Source: Candidatus Kaiserbacteria bacterium
GTDB taxonomy: Bacteria; Patescibacteriota; Minisyncoccia; Phycocordibacterales; UBA2100
Length of the DNA stretch: 64,000 bases
Direction of reading: 5' to 3'
NCBI GenBank assembly: GCA_016214605.1
Contig: JACROD010000014.1
Span: forward strand, 41,074-105,073
Shown here piece after piece: positions 3,946-26,738 of this stretch. The stretch's first letter is position 1. The number at the start of each line of letters is the position of its first letter. Made by a program: the position numbers and the translations under genes. The notes under the pieces are model-generated. The model searched no databases, was not told the DNA's origin, and worked only from the letters and a program-made list of their open reading frames with translations.

Positions 3946-4416
3946 TTATGCGGCGTATTTGATCACAACCCGTCTATTGCGCCCCTCACCTTGTGACTCG
4001 GTCTTTATGTTCGAGGCTTCGGCGAGTGTTGTGTGTACGATAAGGCGCTCATAGGCGCTCATAGGGGACAACTCGACATCATACTGGAACGAACGGGCCC
4101 GCTCGGCCATTATCAAAGCCTTCGACTGAAGGTCTTTGATCTGTTTGGTCCGGTGGTCATTGACATCAACCAGGAATAGGGGCTCGTTGCGCGTGGCGCC
4201 CTCCTGTGAACCAGCTTGTTTTTCGGCAATCTTTTTTACCAAAGAGTCGATCGCGTGGATCGTCTCGCTGTGAAATCCTATGAGAGATGCGCCGGAATCT
4301 TTCGTCACAATCGAATAGATCGTCTGTCCAGCAAGTTCGGTTTCAGTGACATCACGGTAATCAATACCGGCGGCATTAAGCAGATTCTTGACGATATCAA
4401 CGACATTGAGACTCAT
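3946..4416 (-). CDS. jag: Jag/KhpB R3H-domain RNA-binding protein
   Basis: 156 aa; position immediately downstream of yidC with overlapping stop/start; C-terminal R3H-like region (…RRVVIKYAA). Confidence 0.7.
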   Translation of the reverse strand: MSLNVVDIVKNLLNAAGIDYRDVTETELAGQTIYSIVTKDSGASLIGFHSETIHAIDSLVKKIAEKQAGSQEGATRNEPLFLVDVNDHRTKQIKDLQSKALIMAERARSFQYDVELSPMSAYERLIVHTTLAEASNIKTESQGEGRNRRVVIKYAA

Positions 4417-5183
4417 TGAGCCTTTTTATCATAAAAACGTCTCCCAGCCAAGTATTCTTGCGCGATCATAAAAAGATTACTCGTCACATAGTAGAGCGGA
4501 GCGGCGGCGGCGACCACATAGACCACAAAACCAATAACAAGAGGGAGCATGTAGCGCACCTGGAGGTCGAAGCTTTTAGCCATATCGTTTGAAAGAGACT
4601 CTTCTACAGCTGTTTTACCTGCCCGCGGCCCCATAGAGAGGCGAGAATATATCATTTGGGTCGCTACCGTGAGTATGGCAAGCACTATATTGTGTTTTGC
4701 GCCCACATCTATGACGCCCAAGAACATCATATTGACTGTTTCCGGACGCGGCACAAAACTATACAAAACGGCCTCATTGAGGTGCGGGAGCCCACCCATG
4801 GCAAATATCCAGTAGAGGGCGATCAAAATGGGTAACTGGACCAACATAAGCCCAAGGCCGGCAAAAGGGTGTATATCGTGCTCTTTATAGAAGGCAAAAA
4901 CAGCTTGGGTCTGTTCTGGGGAATTCTTTTTATATTTTTTCTTCAGCTCTTCCACTGCAGGAACGGCTTTTTTCATTGCGATCTGGGATTGGATAGCGCG
5001 TTTTGAAAGAGGGTAAACGACCAATCGTACCAAAATCGTCAATAAGACGATCGCGATACCTACATCATGGCTGGGGATATGGTCGACCAAAAAAATAAGC
5101 CCGTTGTAGAGAGGGTTATAGACCACTGCATGGAAGGTGCTCGATATCATAAGGGAATTGTAGCCTGGAAAGGTGTTTATCAA
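4413..5183 (-). CDS. yidC: membrane protein insertase YidC (short form)
   Basis: 256 aa multi-TM YidC/Oxa1-like sequence; conserved rnpA-yidC-jag order. Confidence 0.85.
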   Translation of the reverse strand: MINTFPGYNSLMISSTFHAVVYNPLYNGLIFLVDHIPSHDVGIAIVLLTILVRLVVYPLSKRAIQSQIAMKKAVPAVEELKKKYKKNSPEQTQAVFAFYKEHDIHPFAGLGLMLVQLPILIALYWIFAMGGLPHLNEAVLYSFVPRPETVNMMFLGVIDVGAKHNIVLAILTVATQMIYSRLSMGPRAGKTAVEESLSNDMAKSFDLQVRYMLPLVIGFVVYVVAAAAPLYYVTSNLFMIAQEYLAGRRFYDKKAQ

Positions 5184-5186
5184 AAG

Positions 5187-5528
5187 TTATTTTAAAATAC
5201 CATTTACCTTGAGTACCTGGGCCACATCTTCTGATAATTGCTCAAAAGTGGCTTTAGTACTCGATGAATTGGTATAAAAAGCCAGCGCCAGTGGTTGTTT
5301 GACCTGCGGCATGAGACCCTGCAAGACCGCTCGAAAACGACGCTTGATGAGATTGCGATCCACAGCCTTACGAGAGACTTTTTTGGAGACGATGCAGGCG
5401 GCTTTCGGGGGAGTGTCCACCGGAAGAGGAAAGATCGAAAGAGTAAAAAACACTCCGCGTACACGGCGTGTTTTTTGGCTTGAAAACAGCTTAAAATCGG
5501 CACGTGTGAGCCGAAATTTGGTAGGCAT
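5187..5528 (-). CDS. rnpA: ribonuclease P protein component
   Basis: internal ATG (MPTKFRLTRADF…) of track ORF 5187..5609; basic RnpA-like sequence; sits between rpmH and yidC. Confidence 0.75.
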   Translation of the reverse strand: MPTKFRLTRADFKLFSSQKTRRVRGVFFTLSIFPLPVDTPPKAACIVSKKVSRKAVDRNLIKRRFRAVLQGLMPQVKQPLALAFYTNSSSTKATFEQLSEDVAQVLKVNGILK

Positions 5529-5935: not shown

Positions 5936-7288
5936 ATGATGGCAAACAGAGAACTCTGGCAGAACGCACTCGTACAGATCGAGCTTGGCACCTCTGAGAC
6001 GAGTTTCCGCACTTGGTTCCGCAACACCGACATCGCAAACAGGGAGGGGGGTGTCGTGCATGTGGCCGTCCCTTCCAAGATCGTCAAAGAGTGGTTGATG
6101 GACAAACACAACAAACTCATCCTCAAAGCGCTTCGCGGCCTTGATCCGACCATTCGGACGGTTGAATACACCATCCACAAATCCATCGCCCCCGTTGCCG
6201 ACCGAAAGGCTCCCCGTCCACAAGTCTCCGACAACGCCTCTCTGGACCTCAACAGCCTCTACATCGATAAACGAGACAATCTCAACCCACGGTACACCTT
6301 TGAGACCTTCGTTGTGGGACCCTTTAATCAACTCGCTCACGCAGCAGCCAAAGCTGTCCTTGACCGGCCCGGCCTTAGCTATAATCCGCTTTTTATTTAC
6401 GGATCGACCGGCCACGGAAAGACCCATTTGATCCAAGCGGTGGGTAATTATTTCAAAAAAGCCCACGCCAACAAAAAAGTCCTTTATGTGACTTCTGAGC
6501 GCTTTGCTATCGACTACATAAATGCGGTGCGTTCCGGCCACGCGAACAATTTTAAAGACCAATATCGGCAATACGATGTATTGATTATGGATGACGTCCA
6601 ATTCATTGCGAACACAGAAAAGACCCAAGAGGAACTTTTTCACCTTTTTAATGCGCTTCGCGACAACAATAAACAGATCGTCTTCTCGTCAGATAGGCAC
6701 CCCTCCTTACTTAACGGTTTTGAAGATCGTCTCAAGGGGCGTTTTGCCGGCGGTATGATCGCCGAGATCCCTGAACCGGACATAGAATCCCGTACTGCGA
6801 TCATTCGAGCAAAGATAGAACAGCATGGATTTTCGATCCCTGAGGATATTATTACCTACATAGCGGAAAATGTTCGCGGCAACATCAGAGAGTTGGAAGG
6901 TGTTCTTAATATGATCGTTTGTCGATCCCAACTGAAAGGAAAAGTGATCTCTCACGCGGATGTGCGCGCCCTCATTAAACACAACACGAAACCATCGAAG
7001 GGTGTTTCTGTGGAGGAAGTTGTTCGGCGTATCGCGCACTATTATGATATTGCCGAGAAAAGCATCTATGAAAAGACACGAAAAAAGGAGGTGGTGCGGC
7101 CCCGACAGGTGATTATGTATATTTTGCGTGAAGAATTTAACATCTCATACCCTTCGATAGGGGAGAAACTCGGGGGACGGGATCATACAACCGTGATTCA
7201 TTCGTGTGAGAAGATAAAAGAAGAGATGAAGACTAATAACTCCCTTGAGGCCGAAGTGGAGCATGTTCGATCCCTTATTCAGGTATAA
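5936..7288 (+). CDS. dnaA: chromosomal replication initiator DnaA
   Basis: 450 aa; Walker A GSTGHGKTHLIQA; AAA+ and C-terminal DNA-binding domain; followed by dnaN. Confidence 0.95.
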   Translation: MMANRELWQNALVQIELGTSETSFRTWFRNTDIANREGGVVHVAVPSKIVKEWLMDKHNKLILKALRGLDPTIRTVEYTIHKSIAPVADRKAPRPQVSDNASLDLNSLYIDKRDNLNPRYTFETFVVGPFNQLAHAAAKAVLDRPGLSYNPLFIYGSTGHGKTHLIQAVGNYFKKAHANKKVLYVTSERFAIDYINAVRSGHANNFKDQYRQYDVLIMDDVQFIANTEKTQEELFHLFNALRDNNKQIVFSSDRHPSLLNGFEDRLKGRFAGGMIAEIPEPDIESRTAIIRAKIEQHGFSIPEDIITYIAENVRGNIRELEGVLNMIVCRSQLKGKVISHADVRALIKHNTKPSKGVSVEEVVRRIAHYYDIAEKSIYEKTRKKEVVRPRQVIMYILREEFNISYPSIGEKLGGRDHTTVIHSCEKIKEEMKTNNSLEAEVEHVRSLIQV

Positions 7289-7525
7289 ATTGTGGATAAT
7301 CATGTGTATATGTGTATGAATAGTACGTTGAAAAGAGGTGCGGAGAGTAGAGGATATAGACAAGTGCTTACCCATACACTTCTTATACCCACATTAAATC
7401 ACCATTACGCACAAAGTTTTCAACAATCGGACATATGGAATAAATCCTTTCTTTTCAACAAAAAATTCAGTTTTCCCCATTATCCACACCACTAATAGAG
7501 TTAGTAAGTTTTTAAAAATTTTTCT
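7289..7525. promoter_or_regulatory. candidate oriC (dnaA-dnaN intergenic, AT-rich, DnaA boxes)
   Basis: perfect DnaA boxes tgtggataa 7291-7299 and ttatccaca 7480-7488 flanking an AT-rich stretch. Confidence 0.5.
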
Positions 7526-8640: not shown

Positions 8641-10860
8641 CTAGAACTGTGGAATGATTGTGTGTGATGAATCGGTATTTCCCGGAAGGGTGTTTATAGG
8701 GAATGTGGCAGTGGATGTGGCGTCTGTGGTGGAGGTACTTATAGTACCTCTGACCCAGAGTTGTACTGCATAATCCCAATAAGGAAACTGAGAATCACTG
8801 TAAGGATTTCCGGTTTGTGTATTGTGTGGGTTGTCTTTTTGTACCCAATATAAAATATCATGTACTCCTCGCGAGGGGTCGGTGTTCCAATTACCGCGCA
8901 AAACAGGCGGTAGGGAATCTTCGTCTGGATCGGGGGCCGGTGGGGTAAAACGATCACTCGGATACTTTTCGGCAGCATACACCATCACATCATGCCATGG
9001 TGGCGCTACGATGAATGCCGCTATCTTTTTTACCATAGGACTATTATCGTTGTTGCCGGCCCATGCGCCGATCGCAATAGACGGTGTGTAGCCGATGACC
9101 CAAGCGTCGCGAGAGTCGTTGGTTGTTCCCGTCTTATCGGCTACGTCCATACGATGGAAATTCAACGGACTATCAACGCCGAATTCGGGGGTGCGCGCCA
9201 CATTATCGGAAAGGACATCATTGATCTGTCGTGCGACCTGTGGATCAAGAACACGTGTCGAGTTGGCTGTGTATTTTTCGAGCACATGTCCGCGATTGTC
9301 CCGTACCTCAAGGATGCCTGTAGGTGGATTCTTCACCCCATCGTTGGCGAATACACCATATGCACTCGTCATATCAAGCAAGGTCACTTCGCCGCCGCCG
9401 AGCACCAAAGTGAGTCCGTATTGATTTGGGTCGCCAAGAGTCGTGATGCCGAGAGCTTCGGCGGTATCGATCGCGTTTTGTATCCCGACAAGATAAAGGG
9501 TTTTGATCGCGGGGATGTTTTGCGATTGGGCGAGTGCGTTACGTAGACTCATGGGCCCCTTGAAATTTCCATCGTAGTTTTGTGGCGAATAACAAGGTGG
9601 TTCACCGTTAGTCACATCTTCAACTTTACACGCGGTCGAGAATTGTGTTTGCAGGTCGAATACGACAGTGTTTGGGGTGTATCCTTTTGCGAAGGCTGCC
9701 GCGTACACAAATGGTTTAAACGATGACCCTGGTTGGCGATGGGCAACAGTAATATTTACTTGGCCGTCGATGTTGTCATTGAAGTACTCTTTGGAGCCGA
9801 CCATAGTGAGGATCTGTCCGGTCTTCGGATCGATCGCCACAAGGCCCATATTTGAGGCGTTGAAGTTGTTTTGCATGGCAGGTGCATATGATCGTATGAC
9901 CGATTCGGCCTTTTGTTGCAAATCATAATCAAGAGTGGTGATCACACGGAGTCCGTCGTTGTTTACCGCATCGACACCGTATTTTTTCTCAAGATACTCT
10001 CTCACAAAGAATACAAAATGCGGCGCTTTGATTCCGGCTTCTTTTTCACTCGTGAATTCGACCTTTTCACCTTTGGCGGCCCGGTATTCTTCTTCGGTTA
10101 TATAGCCTAAAACCTTCATTCTTTGGAGTACAAGATTTTTACGTATGTCGAGTGCGGCGCGGTTGTTGCCGTATGGTGAATAATAAGTGGGTGCCTGCGG
10201 GATCGCGGCTATATATGCTGCCTGTGCAAGATCGACATCTTTTGCGTCGAGACCGAAGAAGTATTGGGTCGCCTCCTGTACTCCATAGATTGTGCCGCCG
10301 TACGGGGATTCGTTGAGGTAGGCGCTGAGGATCTGTTCTTTTGAGTATGTGCGCGTGAGGCGTAGTGCAAGAATGATCTCTTGAAGTTTGCGAAGAATGG
10401 TTTTATTTTGGGACAAAAGGGCATTCTTGACGACCTGTTGAGTGATCGTCGAGCCGCCCTGCTCGTATGATCCACTGAACAAGTCCACCAGCATGGCGCG
10501 CGCAAACGAGAGGGGACGAAATCCGGCGTTGGTGTAAAAAGAGGAATCTTCGATCGACACAGTCGCTTTTTGAATATAAGGAGAAATATCTTCTATAGGG
10601 ACCGAGGTGCGGCGAACCGACCCGTGTACATCGTAGAGCACGATATTACCGGTACGATCGTATATTTTTGTCGATTCGGAGACCTGTCGCGCCTCGAAGT
10701 TGTCTATAGAGGGGATCGGCATGATAGCAGCCCACACAAGCATGACGCCGAAGAAAAAGAGAAATAACGCGAAACTTCCTATGATCGCGAGCTTGAGCCA
10801 CTGAAAAGCGTTATTTTGGGCCATTTTTTTAGCTGGTACAAATCGTCGTAATCTGTGCAT
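8641..10860 (-). CDS. class A penicillin-binding protein (glycosyltransferase + transpeptidase)
   Basis: 739 aa; N-terminal TM helix, GT51 motifs (EDSSFY, GGSTITQQ), transpeptidase SxxK (GSSFKPF). Confidence 0.85.
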   Translation of the reverse strand: MHRLRRFVPAKKMAQNNAFQWLKLAIIGSFALFLFFFGVMLVWAAIMPIPSIDNFEARQVSESTKIYDRTGNIVLYDVHGSVRRTSVPIEDISPYIQKATVSIEDSSFYTNAGFRPLSFARAMLVDLFSGSYEQGGSTITQQVVKNALLSQNKTILRKLQEIILALRLTRTYSKEQILSAYLNESPYGGTIYGVQEATQYFFGLDAKDVDLAQAAYIAAIPQAPTYYSPYGNNRAALDIRKNLVLQRMKVLGYITEEEYRAAKGEKVEFTSEKEAGIKAPHFVFFVREYLEKKYGVDAVNNDGLRVITTLDYDLQQKAESVIRSYAPAMQNNFNASNMGLVAIDPKTGQILTMVGSKEYFNDNIDGQVNITVAHRQPGSSFKPFVYAAAFAKGYTPNTVVFDLQTQFSTACKVEDVTNGEPPCYSPQNYDGNFKGPMSLRNALAQSQNIPAIKTLYLVGIQNAIDTAEALGITTLGDPNQYGLTLVLGGGEVTLLDMTSAYGVFANDGVKNPPTGILEVRDNRGHVLEKYTANSTRVLDPQVARQINDVLSDNVARTPEFGVDSPLNFHRMDVADKTGTTNDSRDAWVIGYTPSIAIGAWAGNNDNSPMVKKIAAFIVAPPWHDVMVYAAEKYPSDRFTPPAPDPDEDSLPPVLRGNWNTDPSRGVHDILYWVQKDNPHNTQTGNPYSDSQFPYWDYAVQLWVRGTISTSTTDATSTATFPINTLPGNTDSSHTIIPQF

Positions 10861-11115
10861 AACGTGTGGATATTGTACCGCTGATTTGGTGTTTTGGGCA
10901 ATGGGGCTTGTGAGTATGATCGGAAGTCTGCGGAGAATTTTGTTGCTGCGGAACTCGCTCTGGTGAGCTCAAACAGGTCGGTCACTCCTGTGCCCGACAC
11001 GGTAGTGAATGATTTGTATCTAATGTAGCATTACTTAACTCTAGTAAGAGTTGGACAAATTTGACTTGTCTTTATCACCAGTCCTCGCTGCCAAAATTCT
11101 CCGCGGACTTCCGAT

Positions 11116-11592
11116 CTACGTTGTTCGTGAGTGAGCTAAATGAGTCACTCCGACGGCGATCGCATCGTATTCATCATCATGTTTGATTTCTTTGTCTATT
11201 TTGAGCAATATTTTAAGCATTCGTGCCACTGTCGTTTTGTCGGCGCCCCCATATCCTGTTGATGCGTTCTTGATCTGTCCAGGGGTGTATTCAAAGACGG
11301 GGATATTGGCGAGTGCTGCAGTATTGAGTAGGGCACCGCGCACCTCAGCGACCTTCATGGCGGTCTTTTGGTTGTTTGTGAAGTAGAGTCGCTCCATCGC
11401 CACGTGGTCAGGGGTGTGCTCGCGCATGAGTCGCGCGCATCCGTCGGCGACTGCCGCGAGTCGGTCGGTAAACTCATCTTTGGGGGAGGTCTCGATACAG
11501 TCGGAATAGAGATATATCTCGCGACCATCCACCTTTTCCACAATAGCCACCCCGCAGCGGCCGTAGCCAGGATCAATTCCAAGGACTTTCAT
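11116..11592 (-). CDS. ruvC: Holliday junction resolvase RuvC
   Basis: 158 aa; MKVLGIDPGYGRCGVAI… RNase H-like fold with catalytic acidic residues. Confidence 0.9.
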   Translation of the reverse strand: MKVLGIDPGYGRCGVAIVEKVDGREIYLYSDCIETSPKDEFTDRLAAVADGCARLMREHTPDHVAMERLYFTNNQKTAMKVAEVRGALLNTAALANIPVFEYTPGQIKNASTGYGGADKTTVARMLKILLKIDKEIKHDDEYDAIAVGVTHLAHSRTT

Positions 11593-11661
11593 AGGGGAAT
11601 TGTAGCAGGGTATGGAATGTTAGGTCTCGCGGACGCAAACACCTTGTGATAATGTCAATTA

Positions 11662-13119
11662 ATGTTTGATCCAGTAAAATTACTCCAATTTGTTCTAGGT
11701 CTTCCAAAAGAGACTGAATATCTCGAATTTAAAGAGAATAATCTGAGTGAAAAGACATTGGGTGAACTGATTTCTGCGATATCGAACGCGGCGTGTTTGT
11801 GTGATGTTGAATATGGATATGTTGTGTACGGAATAGAAGATTCCACTCATACAGTAGTTGGTACAAAACTCAAACCAAGATCAATAAAGATAGGGGGTGA
11901 GGATATGGAGCTTTGGCTACAAAAAATGCTCGACCCGTCCATTAACTTTGAAATATTTGAACTTGATTTCAATGGGATGCCTGTGGTTATTTTTAAAATA
12001 CCAGCGGCAACAGAGCGGCCGTTACGATTTCAGAGCCAATCCTATATTCGAATAGGTAGTAATATGCGTAACCTAAAAGAATTTCCTGAAAAAGAAGCAA
12101 TTATTTGGAATAAAGCAAGAAATCGTTTTTTTGAAAAACTTGAAGCCATCCCAAATCTCTCGGAGGATGAGGTTTTAAAATTACTCGATTACCCAAGTTA
12201 TTTCAGACTTACAGACCAGTCATTACCAGGAAACCCAAGTGGGATATTAGATTTTCTAATTAAAGAAGGTTTTGTTAAGCAAGAAGACGGAACTGGATAT
12301 GCGGTTACAAATCTGGGGGCAATTTTATTTGCAAATGACCTGAGTCAATTTCCATCACTAAAAAGAAAGGCCGCTAGAGTTGTTGTTTATGAGGGGATGG
12401 ATAGGACGAAAACAGTAAAAGATCGTGAAGGTAAGCGTGGGTACGCGGTAGGGTTTGAAAATCTTATTGAGTTTATTAATGACCAACTTCCTTCTAATGA
12501 GGAGATTGAAAAAGCACTGCGTGTCCAAAGAAAGATGTATCCAGAAATAGCAATTCGCGAGCTCGTCGCGAACGCACTTATTCATCAGGATCTTACTGAG
12601 CGTGGTACAGGACCATCCTTCGAAATATTTAGTGATCGAATTGAAATTAGTAATCCCGGTAGGCCGCTCATTGAGGTGGATAGGTTCCTTGACCATAAGC
12701 CACAATCTCGTAATGAACAACTTGCAGCCTTTCTGCGGCGGATAGGTGTTTGCGAAGAGCGTGGGAGTGGGATTGATAAGGTCTTTAAATCTATCGAAGT
12801 GTTTCAGTTACCCGCACCTAAATTTGATGTCAATGATAAATACCTAAATGTGATACTTTTCGCTCCTCAAGATGTTAGAGAAATGAGCAAGGAAGATAGA
12901 ATTCGAGCATGTTTTCAGCATGCATGTCTTCGCCATGTCTCAAATGAAACCATGACAAATGCTTCATTAAGAGAAAGATTCAAACTCTCGGATAGTAAAA
13001 CTGATAGTGTCTTTGCATCCAATATTATATCTGAAGCGATTAAAGCTGGAAAAATTAAGTTATTAGGGGATGATCCAAACGCTAGAAAATCTGCAAAATA
13101 TGGCCCACCCTGGGCTTAA
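11662..13119 (+). CDS. Schlafen/AlbA_2-like divergent AAA ATPase with C-terminal HATPase_c_4-like domain (COG2865-type predicted regulator)
   Basis: 485 aa; clearly AT-rich compared with flanks; inserted on the opposite strand between ruvC and yebC. Confidence 0.55.
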   Translation: MFDPVKLLQFVLGLPKETEYLEFKENNLSEKTLGELISAISNAACLCDVEYGYVVYGIEDSTHTVVGTKLKPRSIKIGGEDMELWLQKMLDPSINFEIFELDFNGMPVVIFKIPAATERPLRFQSQSYIRIGSNMRNLKEFPEKEAIIWNKARNRFFEKLEAIPNLSEDEVLKLLDYPSYFRLTDQSLPGNPSGILDFLIKEGFVKQEDGTGYAVTNLGAILFANDLSQFPSLKRKAARVVVYEGMDRTKTVKDREGKRGYAVGFENLIEFINDQLPSNEEIEKALRVQRKMYPEIAIRELVANALIHQDLTERGTGPSFEIFSDRIEISNPGRPLIEVDRFLDHKPQSRNEQLAAFLRRIGVCEERGSGIDKVFKSIEVFQLPAPKFDVNDKYLNVILFAPQDVREMSKEDRIRACFQHACLRHVSNETMTNASLRERFKLSDSKTDSVFASNIISEAIKAGKIKLLGDDPNARKSAKYGPPWA

Positions 13120-13211
13120 TTTAAGTAATCTCTAAGGTAGAGTACTGGGCATTTTCCTTATTTATAGCCATATTTTATTTAATCTTAAAGTAGAGTGGTA
13201 TATCGGCGACA

Positions 13212-13751
13212 ATGTTCACTATGATCGAATACACCCATAAAATAAGCACTCGTGCGCGGGGGATGCGGATCTCTGTGGGGGTGGATGGGGGAGTAGTGGT
13301 CACTACGCCGCGGTTTGTGACCGTCGGCATGATCGATCGTTTTGTGACCAAACACACCGACTGGATATCGCGGCATGTGGCGCGGGCGCGGTTGCGCACG
13401 GTGATGCGGATACCACACAAGGATGTGGTAGTGATCAAGAAGCAGGCGCTCGAGCTCGCAGAAAGCCGCTGTGCGCATTTTGCAAGGCATTACGGCCTGG
13501 CATACAAAAGGATATCGATTCGTGCGCAGAAGTCACGGTGGGGGAGTTGTTCGGCGGCGGGGAACCTCAGCTTCAACTACAAGATCGCGATCATCCCGCG
13601 ACATTTGGCCGACTATGTCGTGGTGCATGAGATCTGCCACCTCGCGCACATGAACCATTCAAAAAAATTCTGGGATCTGGTCGCACAGACGATGCCGGAT
13701 CACCGCGAACTCCGCAAAGAGCTGCGCCGGATGCATGTGGTGGTCGACTGA
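13212..13751 (+). CDS. DUF45/YgjP-like zinc metallohydrolase (M48/WLM-like)
   Basis: 179 aa; HExxH motif HEICHLAHMNHSKKFW. Confidence 0.7.
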   Translation: MFTMIEYTHKISTRARGMRISVGVDGGVVVTTPRFVTVGMIDRFVTKHTDWISRHVARARLRTVMRIPHKDVVVIKKQALELAESRCAHFARHYGLAYKRISIRAQKSRWGSCSAAGNLSFNYKIAIIPRHLADYVVVHEICHLAHMNHSKKFWDLVAQTMPDHRELRKELRRMHVVVD

Positions 13752-13754
13752 TTG

Positions 13755-14288
13755 TTACTCCGCATTGGTGTACACTTCCTCGACATCATCATGATTGTCG
13801 AGCTCGTCCATTATTTTCATGAGCGCTTCGTTGTCGGTCTCAGAGAGGGGGACGGTGGTCTGTGCGTCATAAGTGCCGTCGGGTAGGCGCGCGAATGCCC
13901 ACGCGGCAGATCCCAGGCCAGCGAGTGCGAGGCCATTTTTTGTCAGAATATGCTTTACATCCTGTGCAGTGCGATTTCTATTATCAGTGAGTGCGCTGAT
14001 GATGATCGCGGCACCTCCCGGACCATAGGATTCGTAGACGACGGATTCCAAGGTGCCTGAGTCGGTCGATACGCCCTTGGCGACGGCGGCCATGATCTTG
14101 TCCTTAGGCATGTTGATCTGACGCGCCTTCTCGATGACACTGCGGAGACCTACCGCATTTACGTCACCCTTGGCGGCCTTGGATTCGACGATGATGCGGC
14201 GCGCGAGCTTGCCAAAAGCATTACTCTTGGCGGCATCCGCCGCACCCTTCTGCCTTTTTATCTGCGACCATTTGTTGTGCCCGGACAT
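13755..14288 (-). CDS. yebC: YebC/PmpR-family transcriptional regulator (short form)
   Basis: N-terminus MSGHNKWSQIKRQKGAADAAK typical of YebC; sits in ruv operon context. Confidence 0.75.
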   Translation of the reverse strand: MSGHNKWSQIKRQKGAADAAKSNAFGKLARRIIVESKAAKGDVNAVGLRSVIEKARQINMPKDKIMAAVAKGVSTDSGTLESVVYESYGPGGAAIIISALTDNRNRTAQDVKHILTKNGLALAGLGSAAWAFARLPDGTYDAQTTVPLSETDNEALMKIMDELDNHDDVEEVYTNAE

Positions 14289-14386: not shown

Positions 14387-15400
14387 TTAGATTAACGTTT
14401 TTTGCGAGCGTGGTGGCTCCACTCCGATATGCTCATAGCCCTTAGGGGTGACGATGCGGCCGCGCGGCGTTCTTTCTAAAAGTCCGGCTTGGATGAGGTA
14501 GGGTTCGTTGACCTCTTCGATCGTGGCCTCCTCCTCGGAGAGCGCGGCCGCTATGGTCTTGAGCCCGACCGGACCGCCGTTAAACTTCTCGGCGATCGTA
14601 CTGAGGATATCGCGGTCGGTTTGATTGAGTCCGATCTCGTCGATCTCAAGGAGCGCGAGCGCCTTTTTGATCGTCTTGATGTTGAGTGGCTCGCCCGAGA
14701 CCTCGGCAAAATCGCGTGCGCGCTTGAGGAGATAATTCGCCGTGCGCGGCGTCGCACGGCTGCGGCGCGCGATTTCCATTGAAGATTCTTCATCCACGGC
14801 GATATCAAGGATCTTTGCACTGCGGCGCAGTATCTCGGCGATCTCTTTGTCGCTGTAGTAGGCGAGGCGAAATGTCCCGCCGGAGAATCGACTGCGCAGT
14901 GGTGCGGAGAGGAGTGAGATGCGCGTGGTCGCTGCAATGAGGGTAAATGGTGGCAGCTCAAGCTGTACAGTGCGTGCGGCCGGCCCCTTACCGATCACAA
15001 TGTCGAGTACCCCGGCCTCCATGGCGGGATAGAGGACCTCCTCGATCATGCGATTGAGGCGGTGGATCTCATCGATAAAGAGTACGTCGCCGGGTGAAAG
15101 ATTGGTGAGGATCGATGCGAGGTCGCCGACACGCTCGATCGCGGGACCTGATGTGGAGCGGAGGGACGCACCGACTTCTTTGGATATGAGGTGGGCGAGC
15201 GTGGTCTTGCCGAGGCCCGGCGGACCATAGAGGAGGATATGCTCAGACTGTTGGGAGCGGCCTTTGGCGGCTTGCAGGAGGATGCGGAGGTTCTCTTTGA
15301 TGGTGGTTTGGCCGACGTACTCACCCCAGATCGAGGGCCGTAATGCTTGATCTAATGACCGTGGACTCTTGGAGGGTGGGGTATGGGGGGAGGGAACCAT
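14387..15400 (-). CDS. ruvB: Holliday junction branch-migration ATPase RuvB
   Basis: 337 aa; Walker A LLYGPPGLGKTTLA, RuvB-like AAA+. Confidence 0.95.
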   Translation of the reverse strand: MVPSPHTPPSKSPRSLDQALRPSIWGEYVGQTTIKENLRILLQAAKGRSQQSEHILLYGPPGLGKTTLAHLISKEVGASLRSTSGPAIERVGDLASILTNLSPGDVLFIDEIHRLNRMIEEVLYPAMEAGVLDIVIGKGPAARTVQLELPPFTLIAATTRISLLSAPLRSRFSGGTFRLAYYSDKEIAEILRRSAKILDIAVDEESSMEIARRSRATPRTANYLLKRARDFAEVSGEPLNIKTIKKALALLEIDEIGLNQTDRDILSTIAEKFNGGPVGLKTIAAALSEEEATIEEVNEPYLIQAGLLERTPRGRIVTPKGYEHIGVEPPRSQKTLI

Positions 15401-16031: not shown

Positions 16032-19000
16032 ATGCATACATATCTACGTGCCGGATTTTTTTTATCGATCCACACCCGGTTACTGCAAATAACCCTTTTA
16101 CTTCTCATATTTGCGGGCATGATACCGCAGCTCGCCTCGGCCGCTACGTTGCAGCCCGGTGTGGATTGTGCGACTGGCGCCGCTGCGCCCCAAGCGGAAT
16201 ACTCGCTCAATGTGTCAGCCTTGCCTCTCGGTGCGTATGCGGCAAATACGCTCTCGCCCGACTTCACCAATGCCGCCGGGTCGGTGCTCGCAAACTCCTT
16301 TTGGACAGCCTCATCGACCAAATATGCCGTGTCCGCCAATACGGCGCAGTCCATTCTCGCCTCGAAGTATTGCTCGCGCGATATGGAGGTCGAGACGTGG
16401 ATGCGCAAGGGATATGTGTTCCTGCGATTAACTCCCGAAGGAAAGGCAATCTACTTTAATATCGACTATGATAATAGTTATTTGGCGGTCGGTATTGCGA
16501 CGAGTACCAACGAAACTGCATACTACCCTGGTGCTACGCGCACGCTCTATTTAAACAGCAATCTCGTCGGCACGATTCCGGGTTTTAGTAAGACCGGCAC
16601 CGACAACCAACGCCTCACTTTCGGTGTCGAAGGGTTCGAAATCTATGCCAAGTTCAATGGGGTGGAATTCATGCGCATCAAGGATTTCCATCATATGGCA
16701 GCGGGACGCGTAGCCCTCAAGGCGCCAGCCAACTACGGGCTCCGCTCGACGACCGTGCGCAACTTTGCCGATAAGGCGATCTTGAGCGATCTTACGGCTG
16801 GCGTGTACGATCCGCGCGACTTCGGCTTCCGCTCCATTCAAACGACCGGTTCTATCAGTGCAGGCAGCAATACGCTCACACTCGCAGGCCCGACATCTTT
16901 TGCCGTCGGCGATTTTGTGATCGTCGAGATTGGCAAGGAGCCGGGTGCGGGCATGCGCGGCACCAAAGGAGTAGGCGGCACCTGGCCGGCAAAATCGTAC
17001 CCCAACCTCACCGCCATGCAGGCAGATACATCGCAGATCGACGGCCTGTATGCTTGGCGTGAAGATACCGGAGACGTCTATCGTTTTGCATCCGCAAACT
17101 CCTCGTGGGGAAGTGCGTATACGTGGTATACGGCGGGGACACCCGCATGGGGGCAAGACTATTATTCAAAAAAGTACTATCCCGCCAAAGCGGTACCGCG
17201 TGCACTACAGGCGCGTATCACGGCGGTGAGCAACAGCGGCGCTACACTCACTCTCGACAAGCCGGCTGTCGTGTCCGTCACGAGCGCGAGCGCATATCTT
17301 GATGTCGCCCCAATTCTTAATTTCCTGGTCGGTAGGGATATTTGGTACAAGTTTGGGGGAGTGGCCGGCGACTTGCGGTCCTTTACACCCCTCAATATGA
17401 AAGTGCCTATTCCCGCAGGATCCTATGCGGTTGGCGGAAGTATTCTCACGGGTAACGAACGTACGAACAACGTGCTTTATGGCCAAGGATCAACCACCTC
17501 CACGTTATTCAGCCCCAAGGGCGTGTCCTCCGCATCAATCTGGTTCAATGGTTCAAACAATATGCTGCGCGACCTACGTCTCGTCGGCAACTTCGGTGAC
17601 AATGGTTTTGGTCTTAATTGGGCGACAAGCATCATTCCATTTGGCTACGGCCCGTCCGGGCTCGAGGTGACGTATACAAGCACCGGTGCTGTCACAGAAA
17701 CGGTGATCACGCAGGGCTTTGGCTTTCCTATTGGCATCATGATGTCCGGGGGTAATCTCACAGTGCAGGATATCAAGGTAGACAATGTGTGGTGGGCGGC
17801 GGTAGGCGCCAACTACTGCAATACCTGCTGGGCGTATCGTGTCGACAGTACGGTAAAAGACCCGTTCCAGACCTACATTCAATGGCAATTCGAGTGGGGT
17901 GATTCGACTGGTGGTGGATGCGTCGATTGTACGGTCACGAGCCCTCAATGGATCATCCCCGGCTTTGCGATGGCAAAAAGCACTAATGTGCAGTTCATCA
18001 GGCCAAAAGGCATCAACGCTGTCTTTGACGCGAACTCTGTGGGCAACTTCCTCTTTCAAGATCCTGAGACGACCATCAAATCCATGAGTCAATTTTCCAC
18101 CAGTTCTTTCTCGGCTATGGGGTGGATCATGAACATCAACACGAATCTCGATAACGCGCTTCCGGTACAAGATCGCGACAAGCGTAGCGGTCCGGGCGGC
18201 AAGATCATCAATCCACGCTTCATTGTGCAGGGTCCGATCAATAGCAGCAACAACGGTCTCGGCGCGATCGTGATTAATAACTGGAATCCTAATGTAACAA
18301 TTGAGGGTGGCTACATCGAAGGCCCAAACTGGCAGTCGCCGAGCACTATCAATACGCCGGTGGGGGTCAATTCGCAAGGCACCAGCACGGTGATCAATGG
18401 TCTTCGTGTGGTAGGTACAGTGAACCCGGCGCTCGGTCCAAAAGGAAATGTGGCTTTGGGTAAGAACGGTATCATCCGAAACTGCATCGTCGACCTCATC
18501 TTCCTGAGTGGTACTGCCAGGAAAGAAAATTGCAAAACGAATGCCGAATACGGTGCGCTCGGTATTTCCACCGGCGCTGCGCTCTGGCCGCCGCGCACGA
18601 GCATTATCCTCCAGGGATCAATCACAAGTTCGGGCAGTACGTCGACCGTGCGAGGATTCGCGTATGGTACAACCACAAAATACATGGCGACGACCACAGA
18701 ATCGGGACTGTTCGGACCGGGATCGTTTAGCGTCACTGTGCCGAATATCGTATGTGCAACCACCTATCACGCTGCGGCCTATGCGCAAAACGCAGTCGGC
18801 ATGAATTATGGCAATGACATTACGTTCGCGAGTGATCCATGCACTCCTTCGGCAGCCGCCACGTCAAGCGGCCAGGTCCTCGGTGTCTCGATAACAGACA
18901 CATCACTGGTCGATACTTCTTGCAAGATTGATCGAATGCTTTCCCGGGGAACTCACGGACCGGCAGTGACATGCCTCCAAAAGACGCTTGTCGCGCAAAA

Positions 19001-19181
19001 ACTCCTCCTTGAGGATTCGGTGACGGGTTATTTTGGTCCCGGTACCGAGGAAGCGGTACGTCAGTTCCAAGCGTCGCGAGGAGTTGTCTCAAACGGTACA
19101 TCGGAAACCACCGGCTATGGGCGTGTGGGGCAACGTACACGCGCGCTTCTGGTGAGTCTGGGACAGATGCAGGTCCAATAG
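16032..19181 (+). CDS. large secreted protein (likely beta-helix) with C-terminal peptidoglycan-binding domain
   Basis: 1049 aa; signal peptide; C-terminal PG_binding_1-like segment (…YFGPGTEEAVRQFQASRGV…). Confidence 0.7.
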   Translation: MHTYLRAGFFLSIHTRLLQITLLLLIFAGMIPQLASAATLQPGVDCATGAAAPQAEYSLNVSALPLGAYAANTLSPDFTNAAGSVLANSFWTASSTKYAVSANTAQSILASKYCSRDMEVETWMRKGYVFLRLTPEGKAIYFNIDYDNSYLAVGIATSTNETAYYPGATRTLYLNSNLVGTIPGFSKTGTDNQRLTFGVEGFEIYAKFNGVEFMRIKDFHHMAAGRVALKAPANYGLRSTTVRNFADKAILSDLTAGVYDPRDFGFRSIQTTGSISAGSNTLTLAGPTSFAVGDFVIVEIGKEPGAGMRGTKGVGGTWPAKSYPNLTAMQADTSQIDGLYAWREDTGDVYRFASANSSWGSAYTWYTAGTPAWGQDYYSKKYYPAKAVPRALQARITAVSNSGATLTLDKPAVVSVTSASAYLDVAPILNFLVGRDIWYKFGGVAGDLRSFTPLNMKVPIPAGSYAVGGSILTGNERTNNVLYGQGSTTSTLFSPKGVSSASIWFNGSNNMLRDLRLVGNFGDNGFGLNWATSIIPFGYGPSGLEVTYTSTGAVTETVITQGFGFPIGIMMSGGNLTVQDIKVDNVWWAAVGANYCNTCWAYRVDSTVKDPFQTYIQWQFEWGDSTGGGCVDCTVTSPQWIIPGFAMAKSTNVQFIRPKGINAVFDANSVGNFLFQDPETTIKSMSQFSTSSFSAMGWIMNINTNLDNALPVQDRDKRSGPGGKIINPRFIVQGPINSSNNGLGAIVINNWNPNVTIEGGYIEGPNWQSPSTINTPVGVNSQGTSTVINGLRVVGTVNPALGPKGNVALGKNGIIRNCIVDLIFLSGTARKENCKTNAEYGALGISTGAALWPPRTSIILQGSITSSGSTSTVRGFAYGTTTKYMATTTESGLFGPGSFSVTVPNIVCATTYHAAAYAQNAVGMNYGNDITFASDPCTPSAAATSSGQVLGVSITDTSLVDTSCKIDRMLSRGTHGPAVTCLQKTLVAQKLLLEDSVTGYFGPGTEEAVRQFQASRGVVSNGTSETTGYGRVGQRTRALLVSLGQMQVQ

Positions 19182-25244: not shown

Positions 25245-26738
25245 GTGATACTATATTTTCTAATGATTGAGATTATTGCGATAGTGATTGCGTATCCATC
25301 AGCCTTGTACACACTTCGATATGTACGGCGGTTTTATACGAATGGCCTAGGGGCTTTTCTCGGAGGCGCAGCTATTTTCTTAATCATCGAGACATCGTTC
25401 ACTTTTGTTCTTGGTTTTTTGTTGCCATTGATATTCAGTTCTCTGTTATCCGGACAGGAAAGTGATGTAATCGGTATCCTTACGGAAGTTTTTCTGCGAA
25501 TATTTGGGACTGCCATAATGACAGTGCCTACCATTCTTGCATTAGCGGTTGGTTATAAACATATGCAGGGTTGGGCAATATCGACCGTTGATGTTTCATC
25601 CGTACGGACACCACTAGACTCAACTCACCGTGTTAGCAATACAATATCGTTACCGATAATAAGTGGAATTATCTTGGTGTTTCTCACCATCTTACCGTGG
25701 TGGACGACTATAACCTTCACCACTGCTCCGTTATTGGCCTCGAGATTTCATCAGCCGCAATGGTGCCTATGGATGCCGGAAGTCGCTTTTGATTCGGGGC
25801 GGTGGCAAAATCTCGCACCCGGGGTAGCCTGTCTCAAGAGGGCTCAAACAGATGAAGAATACTACGCACGTTGCGATTTGATGCCGGAAGCTGTTCGCGA
25901 ACCCATCGCCAATATCGATGATGCAAACAGTCCCTACCAAGATTGCATAATGCACAATGTCCAAGTAACCACACGAAACGCGACATCTTCGATGTTGGGA
26001 GCCGTGTCGAGTGCCGCTGATACATGCGGCCAAATCAAAGACTTGGAACGTAGAGCCACTTGCCTCCTTCCGTACACAAATACTTCCGCCCAGGGCGTCA
26101 TGTGTGCTGCTGTTTTTAATTCACTCGATCAAGGTTTTTTTGATGGTATTGACGCGGTAATAATCGGCCGATGTCTCGACAAACAAACAGTGAACGAGAA
26201 AATGTTTGAAGGTCGTCCGATATGGTTCAACTTCCACGTGGCTTCGGGATACAAACTTGGTAATCACGTTTCCGTCAAGCGAGATGATATATTGCAATGG
26301 CTAAAGTCAATCAATGTAAATCCCAATGCACGAACAGCAACATCGGCGCGCGGTTCGGCAGACAAGAGTGTGGCAGGGCAAACATTTCTTCTGTATTTGC
26401 TTGATGCGGGTTTACAGAGTCAGATATGGCTTTTCGTAACTGCGGATGACATCAAAGCACTTATTTCTTTTGGTGTTGATCCTCGTATCAAAGATATATC
26501 CGGTTGGTCCGCGATGGATTATGCGATCAAGTGGGGCAATATTGATGCGGTAGAGGTACTCTTGCCGTACTTCAAGGGATATGCCCCAAGACAAGAAGCA
26601 GCAGATTTTTTTCTCAAAGAGATTTGTGATTATCAAGCTGACACCGGAAAATGTTTTTCGATTTGGGATACTGAACAAGCGGCTGCCGAACGTGCTCGTG
26701 TTGGTTTTCAAAAACTAGGATTTATCCAATTCAAATAA
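25245..26738 (+). CDS. multi-TM membrane protein with C-terminal ankyrin-like repeats
   Basis: 497 aa; relatively AT-rich; N-terminal 5-6 TM helices; C-terminal ankyrin-like segments. Confidence 0.45.
   Translation: MILYFLMIEIIAIVIAYPSALYTLRYVRRFYTNGLGAFLGGAAIFLIIETSFTFVLGFLLPLIFSSLLSGQESDVIGILTEVFLRIFGTAIMTVPTILALAVGYKHMQGWAISTVDVSSVRTPLDSTHRVSNTISLPIISGIILVFLTILPWWTTITFTTAPLLASRFHQPQWCLWMPEVAFDSGRWQNLAPGVACLKRAQTDEEYYARCDLMPEAVREPIANIDDANSPYQDCIMHNVQVTTRNATSSMLGAVSSAADTCGQIKDLERRATCLLPYTNTSAQGVMCAAVFNSLDQGFFDGIDAVIIGRCLDKQTVNEKMFEGRPIWFNFHVASGYKLGNHVSVKRDDILQWLKSINVNPNARTATSARGSADKSVAGQTFLLYLLDAGLQSQIWLFVTADDIKALISFGVDPRIKDISGWSAMDYAIKWGNIDAVEVLLPYFKGYAPRQEAADFFLKEICDYQADTGKCFSIWDTEQAAAERARVGFQKLGFIQFK

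Follow-up and report, generated by a model that had tools for sequence, protein, structure and literature searches.

A Schlafen-type single-gene cassette in a Candidatus Kaiserbacteria genome: probable horizontal acquisition and candidate phased DNA operators past the stop codon

The window analysed in this study is a stretch of 64,000 nucleotides (nt) from Candidatus Kaiserbacteria (assembly GCA_016214605.1, contig JACROD010000014.1, positions 41,074 to 105,073), in which an open reading frame (ORF) of 485 amino acids (aa) lies on the plus strand at 11662–13119, between ruvC and a DUF45/YgjP-like gene. We propose, with a probability of roughly 0.6, that this ORF is the only gene of a horizontally acquired Schlafen cassette of 1.6 kb, and that its product is an ATP-switched, defence-type tRNase which would bind its own phased DNA operators. 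Proteins that combine Schlafen, GHKL and helix-turn-helix (HTH) domains form the largest bacterial Schlafen group, and the cis element described here bears both on the role of the HTH domain and on the switch. A preliminary description of the same DNA had read the ORF and the adjacent DUF45 gene as a two-gene mini defence island; its observation was confirmed, its interpretation was partly supported, and the two-gene island was rejected.

Results

Composition of the gene and the empty site in the closest relative

The gene order of ruvC (−), the 485-aa ORF (+), a 179-aa ORF (+), yebC (−) and ruvB (−) was found exactly as the preliminary description had given it, coordinates included. The AT-richness that it had ascribed to the 485-aa ORF was also evident. 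The gene has a GC content of 0.390, and its GC content at third codon positions (GC3), 0.294, is the lowest among 34 genes scored, the other 33 having a mean of 0.578 (standard deviation 0.080, minimum 0.418; z = −3.6 for the Schlafen gene). The deviation is confined to GC3, the first and second codon positions (GC1 and GC2) being ordinary. The lowest-GC stretch of 1458 nt in the whole 64 kb begins at 11651, and the non-coding flank inside the insert is as AT-rich as the gene itself. The native neighbours have GC3 values of 0.706 (DUF45), 0.692 (ruvB) and 0.657 (yebC). Low GC3 was likewise recorded for homologues elsewhere, with 0.11 against 0.34 for its neighbours at one locus (L089) and 0.37 within a contig of 53% GC at another (L001).

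The closest relative, Kaiserbacteria VGJQ01000001 (L009), was found by a genome scan with the DUF45 protein. Its gene order, dnaN-PBP1A-ruvC-DUF45-yebC...ruvB-pilB, matches that of the window with 75–91% amino acid identity, and it carries an empty site, in which the divergent ruvC and DUF45 genes are separated by 44 nt with no Schlafen gene between them. In a pairwise alignment of the two genomes, homology stops at 11608 and restarts at 13220, which indicates an insertion of ~1.6 kb with one ORF. The inserted cassette thus spans 11609–13219 (+) and comprises a 5′ leader, the gene and a putative 3′ operator module; its right end lies somewhere in 13195–13219. Judged by these alignments and by composition, the Schlafen gene was horizontally acquired as a single-gene insertion into the 44-nt divergent spacer of ruvC and DUF45. 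Nothing convincing was found at the insertion in the way of flanking direct or inverted repeats, a target-site duplication, an integrase or a transposase, and no tRNA gene lies within 17 kb of the junction. An apparent resemblance of the right window junction to the empty site of L009 was not significant (57/500 shuffles).

The gene might instead be ancestral to Kaiserbacteria and lost in the L009 lineage, with its low GC arising from gene-specific constraints, and the fact that just one close relative with the same synteny was at hand leaves some room for this explanation. Constraints of that kind are difficult to reconcile with a shift of 3.6 standard deviations seen in GC3 alone, with a non-coding flank that is equally AT-rich, or with a 3′ flank that matches cassettes in other genomes; moreover, the best homologues, at 61–62% identity, occupy unrelated contexts and phyla. 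Ancestry with secondary loss is therefore very improbable.

Domains and motifs of the 485-aa protein

The AlbA_2 and HATPase_c_4 domains that had been suggested for the ORF were recovered with Pfam, thereby giving SLFN_AlbA_2 (PF04326) at residues 17–138 (E = 5e-17, 62.9 bits against a cut-off of 25.3) and, downstream of it in the same polypeptide, HATPase_c_4 (PF13749) at residues 315–399 (E = 1e-21). A Candidatus Kaiserbacteria protein at NCBI matches the 485-aa protein at 100%; looking up the exact sequence gave no recorded contig. The AlphaFold2 model (predicted local distance difference test, pLDDT, 89.5) comprises an N-terminal Schlafen (AlbA_2) domain (aa 1–140; 11662–12081), a connecting helix, a small helical or winged domain (~aa 160–225), a GHKL ATPase domain of Bergerat fold (~aa 239–400; 12376–12861) and a C-terminal winged helix-turn-helix (wHTH; ~aa 405–485; 12874–13116). 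The wHTH is modelled with helices at 410–426, 433–439 and 446–461 and two strands after them, the last helix being the predicted recognition helix (12997–13044).

The residues expected of a nuclease and an ATPase are conserved among 63 homologues. E17, E22, K24 and N42 are invariant, thereby forming an E17-x4-E22-x-K24 motif, and position 60 is D in 53, N in nine and E in one of the 63. Within the Schlafen box S38-A39-I40-S41-N42, the S, A and N are invariant or nearly so, and G57 is invariant, as are the GHKL residues E300, N304, N331-P-G333, G368 and G370. In a profile search against PDB sequences, E22 aligned on E211 of SLFN14, a residue changed in deposited dead mutants, and the G-I-E-D60 stretch fell on the G-V-D-D stretch of SLFN proteins. 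Structural matches returned by Foldseek included the full-length COG2865 structure 3LMM, the CA (ATP-binding) domains of PDK1-4 and of histidine kinases, and four Schlafens, namely SLFN13 (5yd0; E = 1e-3, probability 1.0), SLFN11 (7zel), SLFN14 (9nyy) and SLFN5 (7q3z). By its motifs, the protein is assigned as a regular member of the Schlatpase-HTH class with nuclease and ATPase motifs intact, and it is a bacterial relative of the antiviral Schlafen RNases of humans. The family had been called uncharacterised, a statement that no longer holds, since it is already catalogued as the pSlfn 'HisKinase-HTH' or 'Schlatpase' class; taken alone, the gene is an ordinary member of this catalogued family.

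A two-site cis element past the stop codon

The flanks of 83 loci were inspected, and apart from the window the element was recorded across the sets L089–L168, L001, L003, L006, L169 and L171–L176. In most homologues two sites lie past the stop codon, each usually a tandem direct repeat of a half-site of ~9 nt with an 11-nt period; examples are TCTTATGTGACGGTTATGTGAT, TCTTATTTGATGGCTATTTGAT, TTATGTAACGGGTATGTAAC and TCGTTGACGGGTCGTTGAC. The half-site varies between loci, is identical in both sites of one locus and always stands on the gene strand, and at 60 of the 70 loci scored the stop codon is followed by the first half-site within 15 nt. In 41/76 downstream flanks a tandem 9-mer was accompanied by another copy 40 nt or more away. 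The same pattern was met in 0/63 control flanks taken 500 nt further on, in 0/76 intragenic segments and in a mean of 0.14 shuffled flanks.

The distances from site to site are quantised, clustering at 54–58, 63–67, 74–78, 87–92, 96–100, 108–113 and 118–119 nt (Rayleigh test, R = 0.53 at a period of 10.9 nt, p ≈ 4e-9). Such quantisation amounts to helical phasing, which favours a multimer on one face of double-stranded DNA over an RNA element; folded as RNA, the 3′ flank scored no better than shuffles (z = −0.75). The same two-site arrangement stands behind the homologues of a Cereibacter plasmid and of phage Musica (45–46% identity), and the Streptococcus satellite homologues (37% identity) have no downstream sites. 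At 10–15 loci a module of the same geometry is also found upstream, at about −90 to −63 and −24 to −11 from the ATG, and at loci embedded in restriction–modification (R-M) systems site B abuts the start codon of hsdR. Since the element is kept where the downstream gene is convergent or unrelated, it belongs to the Schlafen cassette itself.

Two other repeats were recorded in the flanks. In the Streptococcus satellite phage Javan328 (L170; 37% identity), two copies of the 26-nt repeat GGAATTTACTTRGAAAATAAAAATTA lie ~75 and 27 nt upstream of the gene (3989–5455). At L091, around 9545–9610 (93–160 nt past the stop codon), tandem 12-nt units (GGACGTAATCGT/GGGGGCGTAATC) occur in at least five copies and are unlike the usual module. 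Neither operators nor repeats are mentioned in PMC13056530 or in bioRxiv 10.64898/2026.05.29.728809, and no description of the cis element was found in the literature within a limited searchable library, which is not proof of novelty.

The sites of the window

The window carries a diverged, two-part variant of the element. Operator-like site 1 (TTTAAGTAATCTCTAAGGTAGA; 13120–13141, +) begins at the first base past the stop codon, and operator-like site 2 (TTTATTTAATCTTAAAGTAGA; 13174–13194, +) is 54 nt, or five helical turns, from site 1 and 17 nt ahead of the DUF45 ATG. Site 1 is a direct repeat of site 2, a match of which no like was seen in 100 shuffles, and each site is unique in the 64 kb and essentially absent from shuffles. 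The placement of site 1 is that of site A in 60/70 homologous loci. In the form TTTTATWTAAYCTYAAAGTAGA, site 2 also follows the genes of the closest homologues (L001, L172 and L176), the proteins of which are 59–62% identical and stand in unrelated contexts; the 3′ flank of the window at 13156–13194 is 85% identical to that of the closest homologue, the proteins being 61% identical. In the subclade formed by the window protein with L001, L172, L176 and L173, the recognition helix reads SKTDSVF(A/T)SNII. A (C)TGRTA motif occurs 14–19 nt ahead of the ATG in the window (11643–11661) and in the close homologues L172, L173 and L176; it may represent an extended −10 box, in which case the leader would be very short.

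A further explanation treats the repeats as recombination or end sites and the protein as the agent that moves its own gene. GHKL ATPases often manipulate DNA, and several traits of the cassette fit such a role: neither an integrase or transposase nor flanking repeats accompany the single inserted gene, the insert ends on the right within ~25 nt of the end of site 2, some loci have the module on both sides, and the family was inserted independently between ruvB and pilB in another genome of the Candidate Phyla Radiation (CPR). However, no target-site duplication was found, the junction similarity is at the level of shuffles, and the module is one-sided at most loci. Helical phasing over 55–120 bp is typical of looping regulators and atypical of element ends, the Schlafen domains with this motif that have been assayed are RNases, and several copies adjoin ordinary integrases that are able to move them. 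A self-mobilising cassette is consequently improbable.

Co-variation of half-site and recognition helix

Residues 449 and 450, which lie where the predicted recognition helix begins, show the highest mutual information with the half-site type among all 485 columns (0.98–0.99, where 300 permutations of the labels reached at most 0.79), and the top three columns after normalisation by entropy are 449, 450 and 454. The combination N-Y-P occurs with ATGTAA at all 16 of 16 loci, N-Y-S/A with ATGTGA at 19 of 21 and N-S/A-A with ATTTGA at 19 of 22, and N-K-A/S pairs with (T/C)GTTGA and Y-T with (A/G)TGTCA. The idea that the half-site types merely mark three deep clades was considered and is disfavoured by sequence identity: over residues 1–404 the nearest neighbour shares the half-site type in only 40/59 cases, and mean identity is 0.561 within types vs 0.539 between them, so overall similarity fails to account for the co-variation. 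A two-residue specificity code is predicted from these alignments, with Y/S/K at position 449 and P/S/A at position 450.

Co-variation of phased operator pairs with a recognition helix is also what a pure transcription factor would display, and the historical annotation of the protein is 'predicted HTH transcriptional regulator'. Such a factor would control the adjacent promoter, for example by delaying or tuning hsdR as C proteins do in type II R-M systems, and its Schlafen and GHKL domains would sense a ligand or ATP instead of making up a toxic RNase. The abutment of site B on the hsdR start, the upstream modules at 10–15 loci, the upstream repeats of the satellites and the lack of a defence phenotype for the HisKinase-type pSlfn in PMC13056530 are all in its favour. 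On the other hand, the Ex4ExK motif and the E and N of the ATPase are invariant in the 63 homologues, which span many phyla, a degree of conservation that is difficult to account for unless the protein is catalytic. In RzAgo the same supradomain acts as a tRNase, and a module that is kept where the downstream gene is convergent or absent cannot serve the regulation of a neighbour alone. We therefore consider a purely regulatory protein unlikely, although it deserves to be taken seriously.

Homologues and their genomic contexts

More than 8000 homologues of ~485 aa, at 50–62% identity, were found in Bacillota, Cyanobacteria, Planctomycetota, Bacteroidota, Gracilibacteria and other groups, a cross-phylum pattern typical of a mobile gene. 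The closest (P0002; 61%) is a solo gene that adjoins a Xer-type integrase in a housekeeping context. Another (P0005; 58%) overlaps the hsdS stop codon and is followed by hsdR, within a type I R-M operon in which Fic, RadC and NYN genes are present as well; a Gracilibacteria homologue (P0012) is solo and close to PIN/zeta toxin–antitoxin genes, and P0007 lies downstream of a Mrr-type nuclease. Hsd genes accompany 20/80 metagenomic homologues (tblastn) as well as L003–L005, and as immediate neighbours HsdS is upstream at 10/64 loci and HsdR downstream at 10/70. Several other homologues adjoin other methylase or helicase genes, and many are in housekeeping contexts. Among mobile elements, the homologue of Streptococcus phage satellites adjoins the integrase, that of the Burkholderia P2-like temperate phage Musica lies in the accessory region, and 115 plasmid records carry homologues; one of these, 46% identical and located at 5962–7434 of the Cereibacter sphaeroides plasmid p.B (L171), is annotated 'MloB', a name that originated with M-linked ORFs in type I R-M loci of Campylobacter.

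The tie between the Schlafen family and defence that had been put forward earlier is thus borne out by its presence in type I R-M operons (~1/4 of homologues), phage satellites, a temperate phage and plasmids, and the ecology of the family is that of a portable defence-type gene. In an all-against-all BLASTP comparison of the neighbours, no conserved small partner ORF was detected downstream of the homologues, and only HsdS, HsdR, HsdM and a few R-M-like pairs clustered.

A 59%-identical homologue (P0006/L089, 3027–4484; also L174, 6001–7458, and L175, 5156–6613) lies between ruvB and pilB of another CPR genome, where the gene order is tyrS-ruvC-HIT-NUDIX-DUF559-ruvB-Slfn-pilB. Because this AT-richer homologue stands between ruvB and pilB, it marks an independent entry of the same family into the same syntenic block, at another gap. 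At L115, ruvB is ~4 kb from its Schlafen copy.

The DUF45 gene and the absence of a defence island

The 179-aa ORF that follows the cassette (13212–13751, +) encodes a DUF45/YgjP-like metallohydrolase, as had been proposed (Pfam YgjP-like, PF01863, E = 1.4e-45), with the HExxH motif present as HEICH in ...VVHEICHLAHMNH...; the protein is shorter than the 207-position Pfam model, and the match is in two stretches. It shares with YgjP/DUF45 proteins (COG1451) this Pfam match and the HExxH motif, and differs in being native, not linked to R-M here, and outside the inserted element. The gene is native because its L009 orthologue is 80% identical and holds the same position by ruvC, and because it has host composition. 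Horizontal acquisition, claimed earlier for both genes, consequently stands for the Schlafen gene, a composition outlier that is missing from the L009 site, and falls for DUF45.

The proposal of a two-gene defence or abortive-infection module, in which the Schlafen-like ATPase and DUF45 arrived and act together, is favoured by the adjacency and shared direction of the two genes and by site 2, which ends 17 nt ahead of the DUF45 start. A DUF45-like gene follows hsdR in 2/80 Schlafen loci, which also speaks for it. Against it stand not only the composition of DUF45 and its occurrence without a Schlafen gene in L009, but also the nearest Schlafen homologues, which lack a DUF45 neighbour, the spread of the DUF45 subfamily across CPR genomes without hsd, and the lack of other defence genes within ±10 kb. 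A joint module is therefore scarcely credible. The two exceptional loci are type I R-M operons of the order M-S-Slfn-R-DUF45 (DUF45-like genes at L141, 13209–13481, and L156, 6873–7112); since these DUF45-like genes are 31–35% identical to that of the window, the adjacency of Schlafen and DUF45 in the window looks coincidental. The related claim that COG1451 is linked to R-M found no support in this DUF45 subfamily, as only one weak Hsd (HsdM-like) match was obtained across 80 loci of close DUF45 relatives, and DUF45 relatives are widespread in CPR genomes without hsd neighbours.

The mini defence island itself was not recovered. The neighbours are housekeeping genes, no hsd gene occurs in the 64-kb window, and no known defence gene lies within ±10 kb of the Schlafen gene. 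PADLOC gave no match on DUF45 and only weak partial matches on the Schlafen protein, namely to pAgo-associated models (residues 288–410, the GHKL segment) and to PDC-S50, and NCBIfam gave no match on the Schlafen protein. The DUF45, yebC and ruv genes are bystanders. Because site 2 ends so close to the DUF45 start, the insertion parted DUF45 from its former upstream region, and the gene is now probably expressed by read-through or from the cassette module.

Native neighbours of the cassette

The left flank of the insertion is the native ruvC (11116–11592, −; Pfam RuvC, E = 4e-40; GC3 0.572), which is 79% identical in amino acids to its L009 orthologue. On the right, beyond DUF45, lie the native yebC (13755–14288, −; Pfam; 75% identity to L009) and ruvB (14387–15400, −; Pfam and NCBIfam; 91% identity to L009). 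The wider neighbourhood is origin-proximal housekeeping, with yidC, jag, dnaA, dnaN, PBP1A, ruvC, yebC, ruvB, pilB, tsaE and polA (Pfam). The preliminary description had treated the ruv genes as a conserved operon, an assumption that does not agree with the relatives: L009 has three extra genes between yebC and ruvB (9280–11890, without Pfam match and without counterpart in the window), and in a less closely related CPR genome ruvC and ruvB are separated by HIT, NUDIX and DUF559 genes. In the window, in turn, ruvB and pilB are separated by a gene (16032–19181) for a 1049-aa protein that carries PG_binding_1 at its C-terminus and has no counterpart in L009. The ruvC...pilB block thus carries variable cargo.

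YebC is a short form of 177 aa in the window and in L009 (8697–9230), compared with ~240 aa in models, with its Pfam match split in two stretches and its NCBIfam score under the cut-offs; since it is found in both Kaiserbacteria genomes, the shortened form appears to be typical of the lineage. The gene at 25245–26738, which encodes an ankyrin-repeat protein of 497 aa, ranks second from the bottom in GC3 (0.418) among those scored and may likewise have been acquired. Scans of 11400–13900 remained at chance for promoters (6 promoter-like sites against 4.6 expected) and terminators (4 terminator-like sites against 2.0 expected), and Rfam gave nothing credible in the region (SgrS at E = 0.51).

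Discussion

A proposed mechanism and the purpose of binding

By analogy with RzAgo and RorSlfn5, binding of ATP to the GHKL domain would drive oligomerisation, and oligomerisation would pair the Schlafen domains into an active RNase, which may cut tRNA and thereby halt translation during phage infection. The arrangement of the cis element suggests that the C-terminal wHTH domains of such an oligomer would bind four half-sites on one DNA face, thereby looping out 55–120 bp. Four half-sites per module are compatible with a tetramer and are not evidence of one. As for the purpose of binding, three speculative options are ranked. The first is control of an adjacent promoter, which might be that of hsdR in R-M loci, the promoter of the gene itself where the module is upstream, or that of DUF45 here. 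The second is that the nuclease is parked or autoinhibited at its own locus, and the third is mobility of the cassette.

Several points weigh against the acquired, ATP-switched tRNase with operators of its own. The window copy has no adjoining defence gene and no R-M system in 64 kb, no PADLOC model covers the Schlafen protein, and none of the HisKinase-type constructs was protective in PMC13056530. A 3′ position is unusual for an operator. The half-sites of the window are diverged and heterologous, and were recognised mainly through the similarity of site 1 to site 2 and through four relatives. Co-variation and phasing were obtained from related sequences, so that the p-values overstate independence. 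Finally, the DNA binding, the oligomeric state, the RNA target and the trigger are all inferred.

A more specific form of this proposal can be put forward tentatively, as a possibility that we hold to be well short of even odds. The Schlatpase-wHTH class might be an operator-docked nuclease, that is, a parked, silent tRNase with private phased direct-repeat operators past its stop codon that two residues of the C-terminal recognition helix would read, and in which an ATP-dependent tetramer would bridge the four half-sites. Capture may occur in cis, as the C-terminus emerges beside the site, in the manner of the RepA/CIS element of plasmid R1, and in R-M loci the hsdR promoter could be gated simultaneously. 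Undocking in infection, which DNA-mimic anti-restriction proteins, breakdown of the host DNA or replication stress might bring about, would then free the RNase. If true, the class would combine a C-protein-like controller with a PrrC-like guardian, and would also function alone in portable form, of which the Kaiserbacteria cassette is an example.

Implications

The insertion provides a clean, datable case of a single defence-type gene that came to lie among the origin-proximal core genes of a tiny CPR genome. The predicted binding sites, two-residue code (449 and 450) and strict helical phasing make the role of the HTH domain directly testable, and they suggest a link between the control of type I restriction and a tRNA-targeting back-up immunity.

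Comparison with known systems

In the type Ic R-M locus EcoprrI the order is prrA/hsdM-prrB/hsdS-prrC-prrD/hsdR, PrrC being an anticodon nuclease. About a quarter of the homologues fill the same slot, hsdM-hsdS-X-hsdR, and are predicted tRNA-targeting nucleases with an NTPase domain. This hsdS–hsdR position mirrors that of PrrC, which suggests a back-up to restriction in the R-M-embedded loci. PrrC nevertheless has an unrelated fold (ABC-ATPase-like, with a nuclease domain of its own), the window copy has no R-M partner, and no DNA operator is known for PrrC.

Two papers cover the class of the window protein. Among 5,930 prokaryotic Schlafens with a conserved Ex4(E/D)xK motif, 'HisKinase' (34%) and 'HisKinase-HTH' (19%) were the commonest architectures, patchy across phyla and often near defence genes (Perez Taboada et al., Nat Microbiol 2026; PMC13056530). 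The window protein shares with the HisKinase-HTH class the N-terminal Schlafen nuclease, the histidine-kinase-like ATPase and the HTH. Of seven constructs in that study, only a DUF262 fusion (EcoSlfn7) and an Ig-like fusion (RorSlfn5) protected E. coli; these defenders have other sensor domains than the window protein, and the window copy is without defence neighbours. The pair of SLFN and PF13749 has been named 'Schlatpase' and accounts for 58.6% of prokaryotic SLFN proteins, most Schlatpases being small proteins with a C-terminal HTH, and stand-alone and HsdS-fused Schlatpases occur in type I R-M operons (Kuzmenko et al., bioRxiv 10.64898/2026.05.29.728809). In RzAgo, the only protein for which this is known, ATP binding (E314/N318) leads to tetramerisation, thereby pairing the SLFN domains into a tRNase (bioRxiv 10.64898/2026.05.29.728809). 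The window protein shares SLFN_AlbA_2 and PF13749 with RzAgo, and its E300/N304 has the same E-x3-N spacing as the Mg-ATP-coordinating E314/N318, the equivalence being drawn from spacing. It lacks the Argonaute core and the guide RNA, however, and its putative sensor is a wHTH with double-stranded DNA sites.

RptR of type I R-M islands, which binds three direct repeats (palindrome TAGCTA; PMC12255303), was considered as a literature precedent for the element and proved to be an unrelated small repressor. Like the C proteins of type II R-M systems, it belongs to the HTH proteins of R-M loci that use repeated promoter operators and gate restriction genes. C proteins and RptR are small dimers on palindromes, whereas the window protein has 485 aa with nuclease and ATPase domains, and the operators proposed here are direct-repeat half-sites with an 11-bp period, arranged in two phased sites usually 3′ of the gene itself. 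The best match over the whole length, in structure and in sequence, is provided by the COG2865 structural-genomics proteins, namely DIP2311 of Corynebacterium diphtheriae (3LMM) and 2KYY; 3LMM was matched with a Foldseek E of 2e-20 and a profile E of 2.5e-6 on the GHKL segment, at an identity of only 14–16%.

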